From a virus (Duplodnaviria > Heunggongvirae > Uroviricota > Caudoviricetes), in IMG/VR virus record IMGVR_UViG_2617270976_000016, positions 1-23,498 of that record: a stretch of DNA of 23,498 nucleotides; one strand, written 5' to 3'. The notes beneath the pieces are model-generated. The model was not told where the DNA came from. It saw nothing but the letters and a program-made list of their open reading frames with translations, and did not search any database. Positions within the stretch are counted from its first letter, which is position 1. Every line of letters starts with the position of its first letter. The position numbers and the translations under genes are program-made. Below, one piece after another: positions 4,807 through 22,370 of the stretch.

Positions 4807-7524
4807 TTAAGCTACATTGCCGGGGTAGGTAGCGTTATCGTACTGATAGAAAGTGTCGCGATACTCTTTTGCCGTTACCTGACATGTTCCATCAGATTGC
4901 GGTGCTATCTCTGAAATTAATGCGCTATATCCAACACGGGATGACTCGCAGAAAATCAGACGAGGCGATTCAATGGATGGGGCGTTTAGCATGATATTGC
5001 TGAATTTTGCTTGTTCTATTACTGATAGAACATATTCATTTACCCTTGTAGCTGCCAGCAAATCCGAAGCAGAACCATCCTGATAGCGTATCAATGCACG
5101 TGGGTTGTTGAATGTCCAGTCAAGTGGTTCTGATACTGTAATAGTCGTTACGCCATCACTTGTACTCATATCCTCAATCAACGTGCTTATTGTTTTGCTA
5201 CCAGGAATATCATCCGTGAATACTACCCTGTCGCCAACGTTATAACAGAGAGCATCCATTTCCGTTGTTGTGGTATGAGTCAAACGTTGCTGAAGGTACT
5301 TCATCAGACGTCGCATACCTATCTGATAAGCACGGTCCTGGTCAAGAACACCATCAAGCGTATAGTCCTCAATCTTTACCGGAGTTGGGTTATCTGATGT
5401 TCTGCACTGCACCGTCTCTTCAGCCCATGTAGTGCCGTTGATATATGTAACATCCACACCATCATAGTCATCTGCTGACGGAGCAACGAAAGCAGTCTGA
5501 AGCGGATCAGTCATCTCCTGTGGGCTGATTATTCCAGTCCACGTTTTCACACCTTCCCTTGCTACAGATGCCAGACCATCGGTAAGAAGGAAGTAACTTT
5601 TTCCTGCATTTGTCACCTTCTGAAGCATCTCCAGCGCAGAAACAGAATCCGTAGTGGCATAGTCAAAGAATTCACTGCCAGGGGTCCAGTAAGTAGTTTC
5701 TAGTGAGTCAATAGCTTCACGGTCCATCGCTAGCCCCAACTCATTACCTATATGATACAGAGCACCAGAAATGCTCCTTGACACACCAGAATCATAAACT
5801 CGCGTGGCTACAACGTTTACGCGGCGATCTGACTGCGCTGCCAGTTTACCGCCAGTTTCCACAGTAACCGCAATTGTGGGGACGCCAGTATACGATGCTG
5901 GCCGTGACAACAAACGTCCTCGCAATGACTGCCAGTACATGTTATCGCGACTGTTATTCTGTCCCTGCTCGTTCGTGCGGCGAGCTCTCACCTCTACTAG
6001 CGCAGGCGTATCCAGCGTGATTCTTTCGGTAAATCCCAGTCCGTTAATGTTCTGGAGGTAGTACGATCCGGTTTTACTTATCCACCCGACGCCTGAACCA
6101 TATGGCCGGTACTGAATCTCCCACTTTACCTCACGGTATTGTTTGTTCCCTTTTTTGTTATACCCACAAATCCCGTTTGGGAAGAAGAAGTTTACTTCGA
6201 ACATATCAACAACTTCATTTTCTGGGCACGCCAGAAAAGGTCCCATCCAACTATCGTTCTCATTTAAACCGTTGGCTTCAAAATCAAGAACTGTGCGCGG
6301 TGAAAATCCAGGCCATGACGGATCAACGCTGCCATCAATAACCCGCTCCAGAGTTACAGAGCTACCATCTATATCAAGAATCTTATATTCGCTTCCGGAA
6401 TGGGAAACAGATAGCCTGACATAACCTTCAGGAATCCCGGTGAACGGAGTTCCAGTGGCGCTATCGTAAGCGAGGGTTATTGATGCGGTAATCACATCTT
6501 CGCCGACTGGCTCAGAGTGAGGTATAAAATCAGCAATGAATAGTTGGTAATCAATGCTGTTGTACCAGAGAGTTACAGGCATCCCAACATAAGGAGCTAT
6601 TTCCTCCAGCGTGTCACTGGTAATTCTGCTGTAAGCACCATCATTAGTTACCACATAGGAATCAGGAACAATTAACTCAACAATTGCACCAACAGTCCAT
6701 GTATCTGGAAGATCATTTGTTGTTTCATCTCCATCATCCGTGCTCAGCCCATTAAATGTTATTGTTGGTCCGGAAACGGTTAGCGAATTAGCAACAACAT
6801 CTTCCGTGTCCGGCGCGGTTTGCGCCATATCAAGACCAGAACCAGATGCGGTTCCCCCAACCTCTGTGGAATTGAACCAGTTTTCTGATCGTTGATCTCC
6901 ACTAACGCTTTGCCCGGGTTGATACACTGTGTAGTTAAACCCATCACCAAGAGAAGCAATTGGAGTTGACCCTACACGAATATCGCCATCCCCAAATGAA
7001 AAACGCCCTCTCCCCATAACAACAAACATTTCAACTGTCATTACCGTTGGATCATCAACTGAGAATCTTGTTACAGGCTGCACTGCATAGTCAGGATAAA
7101 TACGGCTTCGTCCAAATAACTCACGTATCGGGTCGCCCAATTTTGCGTTATTCGCTTTAGCAGGATTTACATCAAGAGGGTTTCCCGTTCCTGATGAATA
7201 ACCGCCAAGGTCACCAACACCAGGAGCAAAGAAAAGAGCATACGCGACTGATGCAACTGATACAGCAACGGCAATCCAGGCAAGAGCTACAGCGCCATAA
7301 GGGACAGGGTAAATTCTGACATCACTGTCTGATTTGATAGCAAATTCAAACCATGCCTGAGGCGGTATGTTCTCTCCATCAACATCAACGGTGATCGGGT
7401 GCTTCATATCAGGCTTATAGCCCTGAACGTTCTTCGCAAGCCACTGATGGATAGTTACTGCGCCATGTTCATGAGTTTCGAGTGGCTCGCCAGGCAGCCG
7501 TGAAGGATAAATTCTGATAGTCAC
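4807..7524 (-). CDS. Large tail-tip / host-specificity protein (J-like central fibre protein)
   Basis: About 900 aa directly downstream of the NlpC/P60 tail gene; start placed at GTG 7524 overlapping upstream stop as GTGA; alternative ATG at 7407; predicted hydrophobic helix near N-terminus. Confidence 0.5.
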   Translation of the reverse strand: MTIRIYPSRLPGEPLETHEHGAVTIHQWLAKNVQGYKPDMKHPITVDVDGENIPPQAWFEFAIKSDSDVRIYPVPYGAVALAWIAVAVSVASVAYALFFAPGVGDLGGYSSGTGNPLDVNPAKANNAKLGDPIRELFGRSRIYPDYAVQPVTRFSVDDPTVMTVEMFVVMGRGRFSFGDGDIRVGSTPIASLGDGFNYTVYQPGQSVSGDQRSENWFNSTEVGGTASGSGLDMAQTAPDTEDVVANSLTVSGPTITFNGLSTDDGDETTNDLPDTWTVGAIVELIVPDSYVVTNDGAYSRITSDTLEEIAPYVGMPVTLWYNSIDYQLFIADFIPHSEPVGEDVITASITLAYDSATGTPFTGIPEGYVRLSVSHSGSEYKILDIDGSSVTLERVIDGSVDPSWPGFSPRTVLDFEANGLNENDSWMGPFLACPENEVVDMFEVNFFFPNGICGYNKKGNKQYREVKWEIQYRPYGSGVGWISKTGSYYLQNINGLGFTERITLDTPALVEVRARRTNEQGQNNSRDNMYWQSLRGRLLSRPASYTGVPTIAVTVETGGKLAAQSDRRVNVVATRVYDSGVSRSISGALYHIGNELGLAMDREAIDSLETTYWTPGSEFFDYATTDSVSALEMLQKVTNAGKSYFLLTDGLASVAREGVKTWTGIISPQEMTDPLQTAFVAPSADDYDGVDVTYINGTTWAEETVQCRTSDNPTPVKIEDYTLDGVLDQDRAYQIGMRRLMKYLQQRLTHTTTTEMDALCYNVGDRVVFTDDIPGSKTISTLIEDMSTSDGVTTITVSEPLDWTFNNPRALIRYQDGSASDLLAATRVNEYVLSVIEQAKFSNIMLNAPSIESPRLIFCESSRVGYSALISEIAPQSDGTCQVTAKEYRDTFYQYDNATYPGNVA

Positions 7525-12023: not shown

Positions 12024-13013
12024 TTACGCCAGTACGCCGATTGCCAGCGCACGATCTATAACCCGAAACACCAGGACCAGCTGGTCACCGTATTTCGCTT
12101 CAAATGCCACAGGATCAGCATGCAACTCGTCGTGATGCTCTCTGCACAGAGGAATCACAAACAGGTCGTGTGCCTTTGTACCCATTCCACCCTGCCCGTG
12201 GCCAATCAGATGGTGGGGGTCGTCAGCTTGCTTGTTACAGCAGACACACGGCTGGGACTTAACCCATCTCGTGTATTTCTCATTTACCCAGCGACGACGC
12301 TTGGGTTTAAGCATGAAGGATTCCGGCGTCTCCGGGTCTACCTTCATTGCCACTATCTTTTTCGCTTTCTCCTGTACCAGTTGTTGAGCGGGTAATGTCG
12401 GAACAATATCGCTTTCACGTGTTACCGACTGGTTAGTCTCTTCCTTCAGACGAAGGGCTTTATAGGCTACGGCTTCAGGTATCTCGTCAGCCAGGTCGTT
12501 CCTTACCATCCACCAGCAAAACTCCGGCAGCGTAAGAACGTGGTCTTCATTGAAGCCTAATTGACCGTTTACGACCTTCAGAAGCCAGGATACCAGGTTT
12601 TGGCGGGCAATACCCGCCAGACCTTCAGTGAACTGCTCACGAATTTTTAAGTCACAGCCCCAGCACGTGCGGATTGAGCCAGGCGCATGTCGGGTGATGG
12701 TGTAGTTGCGATCGTGCCACTCGCTATGTGGGTACTGACATTCCAGTTTTCTTTCGAGCCATGCATCCAATGAATTGAGGCCACCAGCACGATGTATTAC
12801 CTTCTGATTTTCGAAGACATCACGCATTAGCGGATCGTTCTGAAGCTCCTGAGTAGTCTCAGGCAGCATACCAGAAGGTAACTCAGCCATTGACTCTGCC
12901 TGTGGCTCTATAAGGACACGTCCACGTCTGAACAGATGCATCAGTTCACTGCCTGGGCGAAATATCACTACCCCGGTCATGGGTGCCACTTCAGGTGTCA
13001 GTAGTACCCTCAC
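12024..13013 (-). CDS. DUF968-like phage protein with C-terminal Cys/His cluster
   Basis: 329 aa; C-terminal CVCC…HH…H…C…HH pattern; GTG start at 13013 overlaps upstream stop as GTGA (alternative ATG at 12980). Confidence 0.45.
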   Translation of the reverse strand: MRVLLTPEVAPMTGVVIFRPGSELMHLFRRGRVLIEPQAESMAELPSGMLPETTQELQNDPLMRDVFENQKVIHRAGGLNSLDAWLERKLECQYPHSEWHDRNYTITRHAPGSIRTCWGCDLKIREQFTEGLAGIARQNLVSWLLKVVNGQLGFNEDHVLTLPEFCWWMVRNDLADEIPEAVAYKALRLKEETNQSVTRESDIVPTLPAQQLVQEKAKKIVAMKVDPETPESFMLKPKRRRWVNEKYTRWVKSQPCVCCNKQADDPHHLIGHGQGGMGTKAHDLFVIPLCREHHDELHADPVAFEAKYGDQLVLVFRVIDRALAIGVLA

Positions 13014-13735
13014 GCTATCTGCCCCTTAGCAATATGCTCTGCCCACAGGCCACCAATCCAGCGAACACCCTTGGCGGTGAAGCGGGACTGATTGAATGCG
13101 TAATTTGTCTGGTTTGTCGTGCCCGTCTTCACCTCGAAGCGCCCTGCTTCGATATGTTTGCTCTTTGGTGTGAGAACACGGTTAAGCCGGTACATGATGC
13201 CGTTCTCAATCAGGAACATCGCAAACTCTGGCTCTTTGGCATTAAGCAGCTTTGCAACCTGTCGGAATGTCATTGAACCAGTCGCCGTCACATAACGATC
13301 GACGAACTCAGCTTTCGGCGCGGCTACTGCCAGTTCTTCACTCAGGCGCTGTTTCTGTTCTGCCAGATCAGCAGCAAGGCGCAGGGCCTCGGGAAGTGAC
13401 CGGGGGACAATCATTCCACCGTTGCTCTCCAGTTCCTGCCAGCGGTCAACAAGTCGGGCGGTAAACTCCGGCGATAACTGGGCAACGATCACATAGCTGT
13501 CTCGTTTGTTCACTTCGTAGTGATGGTAGGTCTGCCCGTTCTGGGGATGGGTGTACTGCAATGCAGCATACCCTCCAATCACACCGGAATTCATAAGGCG
13601 CTCTATCGTTACGCAGACATTGCTATGCCGGGAATCAACCAGTTTCGCAATCTCACGGCTGGACATAGTGATCTGCTGCCCTACCGTTGCTGCATGATGG
13701 GTCGGACACGTTACTGTTATGCTCATCTGTTGCAT
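13010..13735 (-). CDS. Phage regulatory protein Rha / KilAC-domain antirepressor-like
   Basis: N-terminal Rha-like motif (MSSREIAKLVDSRHSNV) and C-terminal KilAC-like segment; start set at ATG 13735 with RBS GGAGA, downstream of the rusA stop. Confidence 0.55.
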   Translation of the reverse strand: MQQMSITVTCPTHHAATVGQQITMSSREIAKLVDSRHSNVCVTIERLMNSGVIGGYAALQYTHPQNGQTYHHYEVNKRDSYVIVAQLSPEFTARLVDRWQELESNGGMIVPRSLPEALRLAADLAEQKQRLSEELAVAAPKAEFVDRYVTATGSMTFRQVAKLLNAKEPEFAMFLIENGIMYRLNRVLTPKSKHIEAGRFEVKTGTTNQTNYAFNQSRFTAKGVRWIGGLWAEHIAKGQIA

Positions 13736-13751
13736 GCTCTGTCTCCACTTA

Positions 13752-14141
13752 TCAGGCGGCTGCACCCGCCACGGTTTCAAATCGGCTGATCGTTATCTCT
13801 ACCCTTCCAGGCTTTACTACAGGCCCCCATTCGATTGCCATCCGTTTAACCTGACTGTCGTCTTCCCAGACTCTGGCATTCGTCAGTGCGTCGAACAGCG
13901 CTTTGTTGTAATTGTCCAGATCCCGCCGTCTGTTATCTGGCGGGAAAAGAACTATGTTTACCTCAACGTTGACGTTAACTGGTTTAGGTATACCGCCGTA
14001 CTGCTCAACAACAGATGCGTAAACGTTCTTCTTGAATTTCCTACCCATCTCACTGATCAGATGCTTACCCTTTAACGCTCCACGGTCAGGTGACCGGTAA
14101 TAGGTGTTAACTGTTGGCGGGAATGGCAGCGTTAATTTCAT
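13752..14141 (-). CDS. rusA: RusA-family Holliday-junction resolvase
   Basis: 129 aa from ATG 14141; motifs LTLPFPPTVNTYY and RRRDLDNYNKALFDALT match RusA; ATGA overlap with upstream ORF. Confidence 0.8.
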   Translation of the reverse strand: MKLTLPFPPTVNTYYRSPDRGALKGKHLISEMGRKFKKNVYASVVEQYGGIPKPVNVNVEVNIVLFPPDNRRRDLDNYNKALFDALTNARVWEDDSQVKRMAIEWGPVVKPGRVEITISRFETVAGAAA

Positions 14142-14637: not shown

Positions 14638-15102
14638 TCACTTCTTTTGACGGCGGCTGAATAAGGCCACAATCGCGCGGATCTCTTCTTCACGTGCTGC
14701 CAAATGACGGCGGTGATGTTCCTGAATCTCTTCGGCTTCATGCTTTTCAATCACTCCATCCTCAAGCGCCTTCTGGATAATCTGATCAACCTGACCTCTT
14801 GCAGCTGCTGTACGCATTGCTCGACTGAACAAGTCAACACGGTCAAGATCTTCCAGGCTTGGTACATCCACCAGCAGCGCACCGCGACGCTTAGCAAAGT
14901 AGTCAGCAACGAATGACGTGTTGGAAATGTCTTCCATCGCTTCCAACTCGGTGACTTCAAAGAAACGACAACCGTTTTTCTCGTAAAGGTTGTTGTTGAA
15001 TTGGGTTTCTGACATGCCCAACGCACCAGCCATAGCTTGACGGCCTCCTGGGTACGCCTTACACATCGCTTTCACTACTTCTTTCAAAGTTTGCTCTACC
15101 AT
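14638..15102 (-). CDS. CII-like / YdaT-like phage regulatory protein
   Basis: 154 aa from ATG 15102 with RBS AAGGA; immediately downstream of cro-like gene, the usual position of cII; charged helical C-terminus. Confidence 0.4.
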   Translation of the reverse strand: MVEQTLKEVVKAMCKAYPGGRQAMAGALGMSETQFNNNLYEKNGCRFFEVTELEAMEDISNTSFVADYFAKRRGALLVDVPSLEDLDRVDLFSRAMRTAAARGQVDQIIQKALEDGVIEKHEAEEIQEHHRRHLAAREEEIRAIVALFSRRQKK

Positions 15103-15127
15103 CTTGTTTTTCCTTTGGTAGTTATGT

Positions 15128-15325
15128 TTAAGCTGCTGTGTCTGTAGACTTTTGGTAAAGGCTGGCATCGTATTTAAGCTTGCCTTTAGTGATACGTTCG
15201 ATAACAAAAGCTTGCTTCTGAGGGATCACATCACCCCATCTGCACACTGCAGGATGGGAAATTCCCAAAACACTCGCGGTTTTTGATACCCCTCCGAAGT
15301 GTTCTATGACGTCAGTTTTAAGCAT
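15128..15325 (-). CDS. Cro-like (YdaS-like) HTH repressor
   Basis: 65 aa; HTH segment (SKTASVLGISHPAVCRW); divergent from cI across an operator-rich intergenic region; RBS GGAGG. Confidence 0.7.
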   Translation of the reverse strand: MLKTDVIEHFGGVSKTASVLGISHPAVCRWGDVIPQKQAFVIERITKGKLKYDASLYQKSTDTAA

Positions 15326-15417
15326 GGTTCCTCCTGGTTAACTCACGCCTTAAAGGTAACAAAAGGTACATTAAATAGCAAACAACAGTTACAAGGAATC
15401 AATGTAACATTGGTTAC
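15326..15417. promoter_or_regulatory. OR-like operator/promoter region between cro and cI
   Basis: Contains 21-bp motif AAGGTAACAAAAGGTACATTA (15353-15373), perfect palindrome TGTAACATTGGTTACA (15403-15418) and further GTAAC/GTTAC half-sites; cI ATG has no SD. Confidence 0.55.
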
Positions 15418-16077
15418 ATGAAAACAGAGATGAAAGACCGAATAAGATCCCGGCGAGTCCAGCTCGATATAACTCAGCAGACCCTGGCTAAACGCCTTGG
15501 GGTGAGTAGAGTGTCCGTTACCAAATGGGAGAACGGTACAACTAAGCCTGACGGAGAAAACCTTCACCAACTAGCGATGGCTTTACAGACCACTCCTGAA
15601 TGGATTCTTTACGGCAAGGGTGATGAGACTCAAGATGACACCAAAGTTATCCCATACCTGAAGCCACCTACCGCCGTTCCTATTATCTCTGCTGTTCAGG
15701 CCGGGGTATGGACTGATACCTATGCATGCTCAAGGCTTACTGATGTGATTTCATGGACTCAAACCACAGCAAACGTTTCTGATGAAGTTTTCGGATTGGT
15801 GGTTCGTGGTGAGTCAATGACTAACCCACATGGACTTCCATCAATTCCGGAGGGCTCAATCGTTATTGTTGAGCCACATTACGGACAACTTGATGACCTG
15901 TATGGGAAAATTGTCGTAGCAATACTTGATGGTTCAGCAGAAGCGACTGTGAAGAAACTTGTTTGGGATAGCCCTTACTCATATCTCATGCCGCTTAATC
16001 CCGCCTTTAAGCCGATCCCCATTGATGGCAATTGCCGCATTGTAGGAAAAGTTGTTCAGATAACGCAGAACATCTAA
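15418..16077 (+). CDS. CI-type prophage repressor (N-terminal HTH, C-terminal LexA-like S24 peptidase domain)
   Basis: 219 aa; HTH (QQTLAKRLGVSRVSVTKWENG) and S24-like C-terminus (GESM…, VVKK…) read from translation. Confidence 0.85.
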   Translation: MKTEMKDRIRSRRVQLDITQQTLAKRLGVSRVSVTKWENGTTKPDGENLHQLAMALQTTPEWILYGKGDETQDDTKVIPYLKPPTAVPIISAVQAGVWTDTYACSRLTDVISWTQTTANVSDEVFGLVVRGESMTNPHGLPSIPEGSIVIVEPHYGQLDDLYGKIVVAILDGSAEATVKKLVWDSPYSYLMPLNPAFKPIPIDGNCRIVGKVVQITQNI

Positions 16078-16090
16078 GTAACTCATTTCT

Positions 16091-16120
16091 AATGCCAGAT
16101 ATCATTCTGGCATTTTTTTC
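16091..16120 (+). terminator. Intrinsic terminator after cI
   Basis: Stem AATGCCAGA/TCTGGCATT with 6-nt loop followed by TTTTTTT. Confidence 0.5.
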
Positions 16121-16126
16121 GCCTTC

Positions 16127-16184
16127 AAGGTAACAAAAAGTACATTAACTTACTTGACCGTCATGGTAACTAAAGGTACATTTA
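16127..16184. promoter_or_regulatory. OL-like operator region with candidate rightward early promoter (-35 TTGACC 16154-16159, -10 TACATT 16177-16182)
   Basis: Two copies of the OR operator motif (16127-16147 matches 20 of 21; 16163-16184 GGTAACTAAAGGTACATTT) overlapping the hexamers. Confidence 0.5.
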
Positions 16185-16243
16185 AAACACACCAGACGAA
16201 CCCATAGTTACATTCATCTGGTGATGCCTCGGTATCCTGTAAT

Positions 16244-16281
16244 GGCTGTCACTCCCCGCACTTTGTGGCAGCCATCTTTTT
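16244..16281 (+). terminator. Promoter-proximal intrinsic terminator downstream of the candidate early promoter
   Basis: 9-bp stem GGCTGTCAC/GTGGCAGCC (one G-U pair), 12-nt loop, then ATCTTTTT. Confidence 0.4.
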
Positions 16282-16709
16282 AGGGAGCATAAGGCGGTCG
16301 CGGTAAGCATCTCGCAGGGTTCTTACCGGGACTGGAAGAGTTACCACTTGGAGACGGTCCTTTTAAATGTCCTGGACAGTGGCGCTTTGGTCGCGATAAC
16401 AACCACTCCAGTTGATCCTGGGAGTTATCAGGTCAGTGAGATGCCAGCACTCTCGACGGCAGTGACAGCCGGAAGTAGACGGCGCAGCCCAGACGATATC
16501 TGAGTGGCTATAAAAACAGATGGACGTCGGTGGAATCCCGACAAATGGGTTTCATGTACCGAATGAACACATGATGACGCGGGGAAAGAACCGTGACAGG
16601 AGGGAAGTAGACCCCGCGAACACAACAGGTAAGAGCATTTGTATGTTGGCTGTGATTGTTAAGTCTATCGCAACGCCAAGATTGAAAATAATGCAGTGCT
16701 CTTACCGTT

Positions 16710-16786
16710 GTGGCATTAGCTCAGTTGGATAGAGCAACGGCCTTCTAAGCCGTGGGGCGCAGGTTCGAATCCTGCATGCTGCACCA
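16710..16786 (+). tRNA. Phage-borne tRNA-Arg, anticodon UCU
   Basis: Cloverleaf traced by hand: D-stem GCTC/GAGC, anticodon stem ACGGC/GCCGT with loop CTTCTAA, T-stem GCAGG/CCTGC with TTCGAAT loop, 3' ACCA; acceptor stem has two G-U pairs. Confidence 0.8.
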
Positions 16787-16840
16787 GAATCACGTAGCCA
16801 GTGTGGTACCAGGAAGTAAGAAAGCTGTGTGGAGTCTTGG

Positions 16841-16884
16841 CGGTACCAGTACCAACCTTTGAAGTCCCTGGTACCGCCCTTTTT
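16841..16884 (+). terminator. Hairpin plus T-run downstream of tRNA-Arg (probable terminator)
   Basis: 9-bp stem GGCGGTACC/GGTACCGCC followed by CTTTTT; palindromic GGTACC occurs three times in 16805-16875. Confidence 0.35.
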
Positions 16885-16885
16885 A

Positions 16886-16968
16886 CTCAACTGAAAGCGC
16901 GTTCTGTCCCTTGTCATTAAGTGCCAGGTCGTTAAATCCAAAACCAGCGGAACGCGCTTTCAATTGAG
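16886..16968. repeat. 19-bp imperfect inverted repeat around a 45-bp spacer
   Basis: CTCAACTGAAAGCGCGTTC (16886-16904) pairs with GAACGCGCTTTCAATTGAG (16950-16968), one mismatch. Confidence 0.6.
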
Positions 16969-17116
16969 TGGAGAAACTAACCGGCGATTGCAGTCGCCCG
17001 TTTCACTAAGTGCCTCTTCATGGGGCATTTACTGAAACGAAACCAAAACTTTTATTCGCCTTTTGGCGAGGGATTCGTGCAACCAAAATTCAGCGGATTT
17101 TTCCACTGGAGGACTA

Positions 17117-17272
17117 ATGAACCACCTCGAATTTATTGAGAAGAACGTAAGGGAAATCCTTATTAAACAAGGTTTTTCCTCTTCAGTGGCTCAGGGGGGG
17201 CATGGCAAGCACTTGATTTATATAAGCGAATGTCACAAGCCAGTAAAAAAGGCGCGATTTTTGACGATGTGA
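17117..17272 (+). CDS. Small hypothetical protein (51 aa)
   Basis: ATG at 17117 preceded by GGAGG (short 4-nt spacing); no family recognised. Confidence 0.25.
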   Translation: MNHLEFIEKNVREILIKQGFSSSVAQGGHGKHLIYISECHKPVKKARFLTM

Positions 17273-17429
17273 TGAGGCATGCAAAAGCCTGGGCAGATAA
17301 GCAGGTTTCAAAGTCCGAAGTCACAAAAAGAAAACGTGCCCAACCTAAAGACCAAGGTGGCCTCTTTTAAGTATCAAGGCCAAAGAATTCAGCGCCGTGC
17401 AGGGCGCATAAAACACGGAGAAACTAACC

Positions 17430-17912
17430 ATGACGACCACACAGAATGTCACTGAGTTACAACCACGTATGACCAGAGAGCAACTGATCGATGCAGCGCG
17501 TAAAGCCGCCCCTCTCCTTCCGGTTGCTTACCGCGGGATCATGACCGAACTGGCTAACCGTCTTGATATCGTCAGCGTGGCGCTTTGCGAGTCAATGGAA
17601 CAGCGTAAAGCACTGGCCATCGAGAACACCGTTTTACGAGACGATGTTAATTGTTGGGCCAAAGAGTGCGACCGCATCGTTGAACGTCATACCAAATCGC
17701 CGACCAATATGCACATGCTGGAGGCGCAGAGAGAATTACGCGAGCTAACTCCAGTAACCGATCAGGTTATTCGCGATATCCAGGCCACTGGCGTGGAAAA
17801 GTACGCAAACGTCACTATTGCCATAGGGAAAGAAGAGCAAGAAGAAAGCATTGTTTACGCTGGTAATCAGGCTCTGTTATTCGCTAACCAACTTCGTGAA
17901 GGTACTGCGTAA
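17430..17912 (+). CDS. Hypothetical early protein (first gene of early operon)
   Basis: 160 aa; RBS GGAGA; stop overlaps next start as TAATG. Confidence 0.4.
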   Translation: MTTTQNVTELQPRMTREQLIDAARKAAPLLPVAYRGIMTELANRLDIVSVALCESMEQRKALAIENTVLRDDVNCWAKECDRIVERHTKSPTNMHMLEAQRELRELTPVTDQVIRDIQATGVEKYANVTIAIGKEEQEESIVYAGNQALLFANQLREGTA

Positions 17913-21132: not shown

Positions 21133-21360
21133 ATGAGCGGACAAATCCAACGTTTTCTTACTCCAGATGACCTCTATCAATTAACTGGTTATCGTCGCCC
21201 TTCCCTACAGTGTAAAGCTCTGAGGGATAGTGGGGTATTTTTTATCCCACGCAAGGACGGAAGGCCAGGAACAACATGGGATCATGTATCAAACCCTGTT
21301 GGACTTAAGTTAATAGTGAGCAATCCAGAGGAAGAAGAACCAAACTTTAAGGATATGTAA
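21133..21360 (+). CDS. DUF4224-like protein, putative excisionase / recombination directionality factor
   Basis: 75 aa; motif LTPDDLYQLTGY; stop overlaps integrase start as TAATG. Confidence 0.5.
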   Translation: MSGQIQRFLTPDDLYQLTGYRRPSLQCKALRDSGVFFIPRKDGRPGTTWDHVSNPVGLKLIVSNPEEEEPNFKDM

Positions 21361-22370
21361 TGTCTAGAGCTCGCAAAAACCCTGAGGATAACTGGATGCC
21401 TCCTCGCGTTCGACGGGGAAAATCTGCTTATGAGTTTCGTACAACAGATGGTCGTACCGTCAGGTTGTGCAATCCTGATCTAACAAAATCGCAGGTATGG
21501 GCAGCTTACGAAAACTTCATAAACGATTTAAAGGTTGGTACGAACTTCAACGCACTTTGTGAAGAATTCTTTAATTCCGGTGATTTCCACGAGTTAGCAA
21601 CTGAAACACGTAAAGACTACAGAAAATACGGTTCAAAGGTAAATGTTGTCTTCGGGAAAATGAAGCCGGATAACATCAAGCCAGAGCACATCAGAAAATA
21701 TATGGATAAACGAGGTGTTAAGAGCAGGGTTCAGGCAAACCGCGAGAAAGCATTTATGTCCAGGGTGTTTCGGTGGGCATACGAACGAGGAAAGGTGAAG
21801 ATGAATCCTTGCCAGGGCGTAAAGCAATTTAAAGAGCAGGCTCGGACCCGTTATATTAGCGATAGGGAATATGATGCACTTTATAGCGTTGCTTCTATTC
21901 CCGTAAAAGTTGCAATGGAGTTGGCATATCTATGTTGCGCCCGCCAGGGAGACATTCTTGACCTCAAAAAGAGTCAATTATTGAGCGAAGGAATTTTAAT
22001 TCAGCAGAGTAAAACCGCAGTTAGCCAGATCAAGGCCTGGACAAAACGTCTGGAGGATGCCGTTAATCTTGCTGACAGCATTCCTCTTAACAGCGGGATG
22101 GTAAGTATTTTTGTCATCCACCAGCCATCAGGTCTGCGATACACACGCGATGCTTTTAATGCGCAATGGATGAAGACTAAAAAACTTGCTGCTGAAAAAT
22201 ATCCAGACCTTGATTTCCAGTTCACTTTTCATGATCTAAAAGCCAAAGGAATTTCTGATCTTGAAGGTACGTTAAGTGAGAAGCAGGAAATTTCAGGTCA
22301 TAAAAACGCCTCGCAAACAGCGAGATATAATCGAAGAATTTCAGTTGTTCCGGTCGTCGGGGGGCAGTAA
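21360..22370 (+). CDS. int: Tyrosine-type phage integrase
   Basis: 336 aa; C-terminal catalytic region with HDLK and H…ARY motifs; adjacent to a tRNA gene. Confidence 0.9.
   Translation: MSRARKNPEDNWMPPRVRRGKSAYEFRTTDGRTVRLCNPDLTKSQVWAAYENFINDLKVGTNFNALCEEFFNSGDFHELATETRKDYRKYGSKVNVVFGKMKPDNIKPEHIRKYMDKRGVKSRVQANREKAFMSRVFRWAYERGKVKMNPCQGVKQFKEQARTRYISDREYDALYSVASIPVKVAMELAYLCCARQGDILDLKKSQLLSEGILIQQSKTAVSQIKAWTKRLEDAVNLADSIPLNSGMVSIFVIHQPSGLRYTRDAFNAQWMKTKKLAAEKYPDLDFQFTFHDLKAKGISDLEGTLSEKQEISGHKNASQTARYNRRISVVPVVGGQ

Follow-up and report, generated by a model that had tools for sequence, protein, structure and literature searches.

A P22-type immunity region with a predicted operator specificity of its own in a lambdoid Escherichia prophage

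What sets the immunity of the lambdoid prophage in IMG/VR record IMGVR_UViG_2617270976_000016, and do the DNA sites around its repressor gene form a recognizable genetic switch? The stretch we analyzed, hereafter the window, spans positions 1 to 23,498 of that record and carries cI and cro as divergent genes, with a spacer of 92 bp between them (80 bp in P22). A first-pass annotation of the same letters had proposed that a 21-bp motif on both sides of cI marks a pair of right and left operators (OR and OL), and that cI is read from a leaderless transcript. We find that the locus is, with high probability, an immC-type immunity region that works like the c2-cro switch of P22. Judged by sequence comparison, its half-site, ATGTAAC, would be a specificity distinct from those of P22/21 (ATTTAAG) and of Escherichia phage vB_EcoM-720R4 (ATGTAGG).

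The shared 21-mer, AAGGTAACAAAAGGTACATTA, is real. It is found exactly at 15353-15373, with 1 mismatch at 16127-16147, and with 3 mismatches at 16163-16183; when up to 3 mismatches are allowed, there is no further match in the 23.5 kb and none in 100 shuffles. Its 16-bp core (GGTAAC-N4-GGTACA, up to 2 mismatches) gives 6 hits against 1.2 expected—i.e. the 21-mer copies, the repeat at 15403-18, and one stray at 5845. The multiple GTAAC/GTTAC half-sites noticed earlier also stand, with 4 in the cro-cI spacer vs about 0.19 expected. What had been called a perfect palindrome, TGTAACATTGGTTACA (15403-18), has perfect arms but is not a strict palindrome, its reverse complement being TGTAACCAATGTTACA. 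Specifically, 15402-19 is a perfect inverted repeat with 7-bp arms (ATGTAAC / GTTACAT) around a nonpalindromic 4-bp centre (ATTG).

The functional unit is probably not the 21-mer itself, but an 18-bp operator of P22 format, with 7-bp inverted arms (consensus ATGTAAC) and a 4-bp centre. Sites of this kind (Table 1) lie between cro and cI, where ORa and ORb are 23 bp and ORb and ORc 25 bp apart from centre to centre, and downstream of cI, where OL1 and OL2 are separated by 36 bp. ORb is a 3-mismatch match to TGTAAC-N4-GTTACA. The proposed OR/OL pair holds up on several grounds: the motif flanks a LexA-type cI that diverges from a P22-type cro; the sites keep 94-100% conservation across 68-76 distinct relatives in which linkers and third codon positions have drifted; and in format, spacing, and placement with respect to the early-left promoter (PL) and the start of cI they agree with the operators that the P22 GenBank record annotates. 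These are very likely to be the operators of CI and Cro.

Conservation was assessed in a set of 87 loci, with six annotated relatives (cro-cI DNA about 76-97% identical) and 80 IMG/VR loci (CI 93-100% identical), which provide 68 distinct sequences for the OR region and 76 for the OL region; the values that follow are mean identities to the window. Mean conservation reaches 0.998 in ORa, 0.983 in ORb, 0.998 in ORc, 0.966 in OL2, 0.942 in OL1, and 0.996 in the PL -35. By contrast, it is 0.441 in the OL linkers, 0.60 and 0.72 at the third codon positions of cro and cI, respectively, and 0.316 in the region beyond the PL leader hairpin (16224-16330). All 18 positions are invariant in ORa and in ORc, as are 16 of 18 in ORb and 15 of 18 in OL1. 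The base that adjoins ORa on its outside, 15372, is T, C, or A among relatives, and GGTTACATGA, in the ORc region, is unchanged in all 41 upstream variants. Because the edges of the footprint are sharp and the linkers and third positions drift, simple hitch-hiking is ruled out and selection on exactly these sites is supported.

The repressor varies along with its sites. The CI recognition helix, SRVSVTKWE, is identical in all relatives that share the operators, but reads SNVAISQWE in P22 and NRVTVTGWE in vB_EcoM-720R4, and across these three specificities the changes in the helix track the changes in the half-site. The CI-based search for related loci gave only relatives at least 93% identical, and CI identity reaches at least 60% in only 7 of 685 records of the phage collection; since intermediate specificities are this rare, the covariation is limited to three specificities.

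The predicted promoters fall where the operators would control them. The rightward promoter claimed downstream of cI (TTGACC at 16154, a 17-bp spacer, and TACATT up to 16182), here PL, is the sole promoter-like site in a scan of 15000-17500 and does overlap the third copy of the 21-mer. The 20/21 copy lies directly upstream of the PL -35, and OL1 starts 4 bp after TTGACC. The proposed early-right promoter (PR) has the same layout—i.e. the operator follows the -35 after 4-5 bp and contains the -10 in its distal end—and both of its hexamers are invariant in the relatives. A rightward promoter using TACATT of ORa was rejected, as there is no -35 (CACGCC stands in its place).

The promoter for repressor maintenance (PRM) is assigned by homology, with TAACAT at ORc positions 4-9 being the probable counterpart of the annotated TAAGAT of P22 and of TAGGAT in vB_EcoM-720R4. 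A TAnnAT -10 at operator positions 4-9 would account for a centre of ORc that begins with AT in all three specificities. A lambda-like geometry (OR3 centred at -19 and OR2 at -42) was also tried; it would place the start near ATG 15430, where there is no usable -10, and for this reason the P22-like geometry is preferred. In the P22 record (1444-1485), the annotated PRM -35 lies in the centre of OR2, and OR2 is centred about 30 bp upstream of the start. Window positions 15377-15419 share this layout of OR2 and PRM -35, and the route by which PRM would be stimulated from OR2 is not obvious from the geometry.

Other accounts of the same sites have to be weighed. Many of the 87 loci have a CI 93-100% identical to that of the window, and the conservation could simply be inherited with a whole module of recent common ancestry and owe nothing to selection on the sites. 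The same sequences, however, are 60-72% identical at third codon positions, 44% in the OL linkers, and 32% beyond the PL leader, vs 94-100% in the 18-bp sites with their sharp edges, and common descent is hardly credible as the explanation. The motif could also be read as a direct repeat (GGTA-N6-GGTA) for some other regulator, e.g. the cII-like activator or a host factor: GGTAAC-AAAA-GGTACA is readable as a 10-bp-phased direct repeat, ORa, OL1, and OL2 have a common asymmetric sequence that includes the A-rich centre, and lambda CII recognizes direct repeats (TTGC-N6-TTGC). This is very improbable, given that the ORc arms of the same half-site are perfectly symmetric, that the sites cover the PL -10 and spacer and the start of cI, positions unsuited to an activator, that their format and positions are those of the C2 repressor binding sites annotated in the P22 record, and that the half-site changes track the CI recognition helix. 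ORb raises a different question, namely whether OR has only two functional operators, ORa and ORc, with the invariant block 15373-15392 being kept because both PR and PRM have their -35 hexamers there. In the left arm of ORb, AGCAAAC, 3 of the 7 bases depart from ATGTAAC, hits with 3 mismatches are common by chance (16 found vs 9.4 expected), and TAGCAA, the reverse of the PR -35 TTGCTA, lies within the site. Its right arm, GTTACAA, is nonetheless a near-perfect half-site, the spacing of 23 and 25 bp corresponds to that of OR1-OR2-OR3 in P22, and vB_EcoM-720R4, a 51%-related phage, has the same architecture of one good arm and a -35 at the same place. The degeneracy of the left arm is explained, in the window as in vB_EcoM-720R4, by the PR -35 that occupies it, and in lambda weak OR2 sites filled cooperatively are the rule. 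We thus consider a two-operator OR unlikely and keep three sites, ORb being the weak one.

A similar choice arises at the start of cI. As had been claimed, the cI ATG has no Shine-Dalgarno sequence: the best pairing with the anti-Shine-Dalgarno sequence is -2.7 kcal/mol, both at 15418 and at the second ATG at 15430, vs -10.3 for cro, and is among the weakest values of the window starts computed. TAACAT (15405-10) is invariant in the relatives, with its end 7 nt from A15418, and the 5' end of PRM annotated for P22 is 4 nt upstream of the c2 ATG. By analogy with that 5' end, transcription of cI would start at A15416 or A15418, which gives the mRNA a leader of 0-2 nt. The first ATG lies 0-2 nt from the end of ORc in all three specificities, with TAnnAT at operator positions 4-9. 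Its use in P22-type repressors is also supported by an alignment to the solved chain of the P22 C2 N-terminal domain, residue 6 of which aligns with Met5 of the window CI. The five N-terminal residues of that chain are MNTQL-, the translation of the P22 record from the first ATG, which indicates that P22 uses the ATG abutting OR3. A leaderless or near-leaderless cI transcript is thereby plausible, and we lean toward it. The alternative keeps the operators as above and holds that cI is not leaderless—i.e. that it starts at ATG 15430, or is read from a longer transcript, such as one begun at a cII-dependent establishment promoter within or past cro, and that the absence of a Shine-Dalgarno sequence is tolerated. 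ATG 15430 is in frame and invariant, and aligns with Met6 of P22 C2 and with the annotated start chosen in Klebsiella phage ST13-OXA48phi12.2; the proposed PRM is weak and not called by the scan; and with a cII-like activator present, a long-leader establishment transcript is expected anyway. Against this, ATG 15430 has no Shine-Dalgarno sequence either, and the start of the C2 chain, the annotated P22 5' end, and the short distance from ORc to the first ATG all point to the upstream codon. On balance, a cI that is not leaderless seems unlikely, and the first ATG is the start adopted here.

Several observations weigh against a complete P22-like switch. Both the candidate PR and the candidate PRM match 7 of 12 consensus positions, below the threshold of the promoter scan, and for PR an alternative -10 remains, TTTAAT (15375-15370), which is nearer to the position of PR in P22. 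An occupied ORb would cover the proposed PRM -35, unlike class-II activation in lambda, but this layout is also found in the P22 record. ORb has one good arm, its left arm being degenerate, and its conservation could stem from the PR and PRM -35 hexamers alone. The order of site affinities is not readable from the sequence either, because the arm-symmetric site is ORc and not ORa, and the third left site described below has 3 mismatches in one arm in the window. In the DNA downstream of PL and PR, boxA-like matches are about as frequent as expected by chance, with none suitably placed for a boxA/nut site, and none of the small open reading frames (ORFs) past PL matches N in Pfam or PHROG. This portion of the lambda/P22 circuit is absent or different here; N/nut is an accessory feature of the operons and not of the operator switch itself. 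Finally, a full-text literature search with the operator strings returned nothing relevant.

Put together, the switch would operate as follows. In the lysogen, CI dimers on ORa and ORb would occlude PR (the cro-proximal end of ORa contains its -10, and the degenerate arm of ORb its -35), and CI on OL1 and OL2 would occlude PL. The repressor would be made from a weak promoter with its -10, TAACAT, inside ORc, and with the -10 in this position the mRNA is proposed to begin 0-2 nt before the AUG and to be translated without a Shine-Dalgarno sequence. Occupancy of ORc, either by excess CI or by Cro, would then shut PRM. Upon induction, SOS-activated RecA would cause self-cleavage of CI at Ala95-Gly96 and release PR and PL, after which Cro would bind the same sites and lock lytic growth. 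The gene identities, the format and positions of the sites, their conservation, and the lack of a Shine-Dalgarno sequence for cI are shown by the sequence and by homology; which protein occupies which site, the order of binding, the precise positions of PR and PRM and of the transcript starts, and a possible activation from ORb are inferred.

Table 1. Predicted operators, promoters, and genes of the immunity region, with other features of the window
Feature	Coordinates	Strand	Sequence or family	Details
ORa (OR1 position)	15354..15371		AGGTAAC-AAAA-GGTACAT = AGGTAACAAAAGGTACAT	Covers PR spacer and -10; core of the 21-mer
ORb (OR2 position), weak	15377..15394		AGCAAAC-AACA-GTTACAA = AGCAAACAACAGTTACAA	Right arm good, left arm degenerate and shared with PR -35
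ORc (OR3 position)	15402..15419		ATGTAAC-ATTG-GTTACAT = ATGTAACATTGGTTACAT	Overlaps PRM -10 and first two bases of cI ATG
OL2	16128..16145		AGGTAAC-AAAA-AGTACAT = AGGTAACAAAAAGTACAT	Upstream of PL -35; 20/21 copy
OL1	16164..16181		TGGTAAC-TAAA-GGTACAT = TGGTAACTAAAGGTACAT	Covers PL spacer and -10
PL	16154..16182	+	TTGACC-17-TACATT	Predicted start A16189; 9/12 consensus positions
Proposed PR	15353..15381	-	-35 TTGCTA (15381-15376), 17-bp spacer, -10 TACCTT (15358-15353)	Predicted start near 15346
Proposed PRM	15382..15410	+	-35 ACAACA (15382-87), 17-bp spacer, -10 TAACAT (15405-10)	Predicted 5' end A15416 or A15418
5'-terminal hairpin of predicted PL transcript	16190..16223	+	CACCAGA...TCTGGTG	Downstream of predicted start A16189
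cI repressor	15418..16077	+	HTH_3 and Peptidase_S24	219 aa; second in-frame ATG at 15430
cI intrinsic terminator	16091..16119	+		9-bp stem, then T run
cro	15128..15325	-	P22_Cro family	65 aa; Shine-Dalgarno sequence GGAGG at 15330-15334
cII-like activator gene	14638..15102	-	YmfL/Phage_CP76 family	Second gene of the PR operon
Integrase	21360-22370			Right of the switch, with early-left genes (ParB-like protein and others); adjoins host tRNA genes/pgsA

The leader of the predicted PL transcript adds a possible third left operator, beyond the segment 15326-16184 treated in the first-pass annotation. The loop of its 5'-terminal hairpin holds an operator-like site at 16196-16213, ACGAACC-CATA-GTTACAT (ACGAACCCATAGTTACAT), the mismatched arm being the left one, and in relatives the loop is mostly better operator-like, reading GGGTACTGACAGTTACCT or GAGTACCGGTAGTTACAT (e.g. 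GGGTACT-GACA-GTTACCT and GAGTACC-GGTA-GTTACAT). When folded singly, 54 of the 56 distinct relatives form the hairpin with 6 or more pairs; the segment used for folding starts one base ahead of the predicted PL start, and in 52 relatives the first paired base is at most 6 nt from the beginning of that segment. The stems vary in sequence by lineage and still pair, GTAC...GTTAC is kept (as GTAC-N6-GTTAC), and the operator-like core is matched in 33 of the 56. RNAalifold found no consensus structure for this hairpin, which we attribute to differences in stem and loop length between lineages. The element may be a third left operator (OL3), an mRNA-stabilizing 5' hairpin, or both. It is doubtful that the region combines a switch wiring unlike that of lambda and P22 with an undescribed structured RNA in the PL leader, both as new features. 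In such a wiring, the arm-symmetric ORc on the cI start would presumably be the tightest site, and the third OL sequence might serve both on the DNA, as a roadblock or operator, and in the RNA, as a stability element.

The families of the encoded proteins agree with those named above. CI has Pfam domains HTH_3 (3e-16) and Peptidase_S24 (1.6e-22). Its alignment to P22 C2 has invariant columns at Ala95-Gly96, Ser133, and Lys179/Lys180. Among solved structures, lambda cI (3bdn) matches CI at 1.5e-22 over an alignment that spans the cleavage and catalytic regions, and those of the P22 C2 N-terminal domain (1adr/2r1j) match at about 1e-13. Cro matches Pfam PF14549 (P22_Cro) at 1.3e-22, with 79.8 bits vs a cut-off of 30.2, and PDB 1rzs, whose molecule name is 'Regulatory protein cro', at 1.1e-12. 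The cII-like protein matches PF06892 (Phage_CP76, a CII family; 2.6e-14) and phrog_101 ('CII-like transcriptional activator'; 3e-45), and its RefSeq homologue is named YmfL family putative regulatory protein. The prophage lies beside a host cluster of tRNA-Gly/Cys/Leu genes and pgsA in Escherichia, and this flank is up to 99% identical to Escherichia coli chromosomes. Downstream of cII, the rightward early operon also encodes an antirepressor-type protein (13010-13780, minus strand) with Phage_pRha and KilAC/ANT domains. This protein could provide a second route of induction, independent of CI cleavage; motif scans found no copies of the operator motif near its gene.

Past PL, the first ORF with a protein-family match and further genes after it begins at 17430, where anti-Shine-Dalgarno pairing is moderate (-6.6 kcal/mol). 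The roughly 1.2 kb in between (16224-17430) have no convincing ORF and form a patchwork of modules, at 16298-16401, 16463-16543, a tRNA gene, and 16824-17095. These modules are shared in varied combinations with phages of unrelated repressors (mEp390, KpF5, and PAT1). The tRNA gene is a tRNA-Arg with anticodon TCT, for the rare AGA codon (16710-16786, plus strand), a prophage gene between the noncoding modules and the first family-matched early-left ORF; the same gene is carried by some relatives and by Salmonella SPN1S-type phages. For a stretch of about 290 bp (17096-17385), most of the related loci compared gave no alignment. It holds a small gene of PHROG family 4439, of unknown function, split over two frames (17063-17269 and 17230-17367), which suggests a frameshifted pseudogene, and minus-strand terminator-like hairpins are found at 17091-17108 and 17392-17407. 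In relatives, the same slot carries sieB, RdgC, or sub-threshold RprA-like and DicF-like hits, and that of vB_EcoM-720R4 has an above-threshold STnc100 hit.

Within this leader lies a conserved structured element of 57 nt, AGCCCAGACGATATCTGAGTGGCTATAAAAACAGATGGACGTCGGTGGAATCCCGAC (16486-16543, plus strand), which folds into two hairpins and is a more unusual by-product of the analysis than the switch. It is present in at least 120 IMG/VR contigs, in 76 distinct versions, and also in intergenic DNA of unrelated virulent phages, including the N4-like Gamaleyavirus PhAPEC5, Salmonella phage 9NA, and several Klebsiella phages; in the annotated records examined, it has the same direction as the neighbouring genes. 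Its stems show compensatory changes (AGCC/GGCT to AGTC/GACT, and GTCGG/CCGAC to CCAGG/CCTGG or GTAGG/CCTAC), with the sequence between and within the hairpins nearly invariant, and no U-run follows it. The element has no Rfam family, and a full-text literature search with its string found nothing relevant. Two explanations were rejected—i.e. that it is the start of a small gene, as the ORFs have 9-155 codons and products that diverge after about 10 residues, and that it is a tRNA-linked signal, as a tRNA is found within 1.5 kb of only 16 of the 120 copies.

The 3' end of cI was also considered as a source of small RNA. The stretch that covers the cI stop codon and terminator (16066-16118, plus strand) has a sub-threshold match to the Rfam family AgvB (anti-GcvB small RNA), which covers the conserved 3' scaffold. 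Membership in AgvB/AsxR (RF02702) was rejected at 30.9 bits vs a gathering score of 56, and the alignment lacks the positions of the CA-rich seed, CAACACAAC, with which the family mimics GcvB targets. The hit recurs in 1 of 17 related loci scanned, one with a CI identical to that of the window (L008). For the window, an Rfam scan that also included 17 relatives, at gathering and E-value thresholds, gave only tRNAs and this sub-threshold hit. The match is probably a similarity of the cI terminator, and a small RNA derived from the cI 3' end is conceivable. AgvB is described as lying 3' of PR', not next to cI (PMC4104026).

As to its significance, the finding is a new immunity specificity within the thoroughly understood P22-type family, and an ordinary, correct annotation; it leaves our understanding of such switches unchanged. 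What it offers is a base-level map of operators, promoters, and likely starts of transcription for a frequent immunity group of Escherichia and Klebsiella prophages, carried by more than 200 IMG/VR stretches and several deposited phages. This map defines which prophages should be homoimmune, and as such helps to predict superinfection exclusion and induction in clinical Klebsiella and E. coli lysogens. ATGTAAC with helix SRVSVTKWE is also a third natural specificity in the series of P22-format repressors and operators, useful for studies of the recognition code.

The closest relatives are phages with the same operators, namely Klebsiella ST101-KPC2phi6.3 and ST13-OXA48phi12.2, Escherichia vB_EcoS-733R5/716R3, and many IMG/VR prophage contigs. 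Their operators, PL -35, and CI recognition helix are identical to those of the window and their CI proteins are 88-100% identical, and they are presumably homoimmune with the window prophage. Their flanking modules differ, with strong mosaicism next to PL, where sieB, RdgC, a tRNA gene, and small-RNA-like segments are present in some and missing in others. In the deposited records examined, the genes are named as CI/Cro-type or hypothetical, with no operators or promoters annotated. More distant is vB_EcoM-720R4, with a CI 51% identical and arms ATGTAGG/ATGTTGG. It has three OR sites with centres 22 and 25 bp apart, an ORc that overlaps the ATG by 2 bp, and two OL sites 35 bp apart; its ORb has one good arm with the -35 in the other, as in the window, and it carries TAGGAT where the window has the PRM -10 TAACAT. 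Its PR and PL are identical, scan-called promoters (TTGACA-18-TACATT) with the operator between -35 and -10, whereas the PR candidate of the window is weak.

Lambda resembles the window in its divergent cI and cro, its tripartite OR, operators that are repeated at PL beyond the repressor gene, an S24 repressor, and a cI without a Shine-Dalgarno sequence; lambda PRM mRNA starts at the AUG. Lambda operators, however, are 17 bp long and unrelated in sequence, with OR3 centred about 19 bp and OR2 about 42 bp upstream of the PRM start, whereas in the window and in P22 the site at the OR3 position reaches the start codon. Lambda Cro belongs to a fold family other than that of the window Cro, and the window, unlike lambda, is without rexAB and N.

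Among the best-studied repressors, tblastn places P22 C2 (44%) and the cI of phage 21 (43%) as relatives of the window CI, with 45% identity over a full-length alignment to C2; phage 21 immunity is nearly identical to P22 immC. The comparison with P22 uses the annotations of its GenBank record, from which we parsed the 66-bp OR1-OR3 block and the PL intervals into sites. The P22 OR block ends at the c2 ATG and parses as three 18-bp sites with 6-bp linkers, with centres 23 and 24 bp apart vs 23 and 25 in the window, and OR3 ends at the repressor ATG where ORc overlaps it by 2 bp. P22 PL, a 29-bp annotated interval, reads TTGACC-17-TAAATT, with the same -35 and the same 17-bp spacer as the window; OL1 starts 4 bp after this -35 in both, and OL1 and OL2 are 35 bp apart in P22 vs 36 in the window. 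There are also differences. P22 PR (TTGACT-16-GATAAT) lies between OR1 and OR3, while the best PR -10 of the window is at the cro-proximal end of ORa. P22 OL3 is upstream of OL2, while the third site of the window, if real, is downstream of the PL start and inside the hairpin. P22 has gene 24 (an N analogue) with nutL/nutR, none of which was found in the window, and its C1 is of another type than the cII-like protein of the window (CP76/YmfL type). The half-sites ATTTAAG and ATGTAAC are the same at 5 of 7 positions, and as both the half-site and the recognition helix differ, heteroimmunity with P22 is expected. Taken as a whole, these likenesses point to a P22 immC-type switch, with P22 and not lambda as the better analogue.

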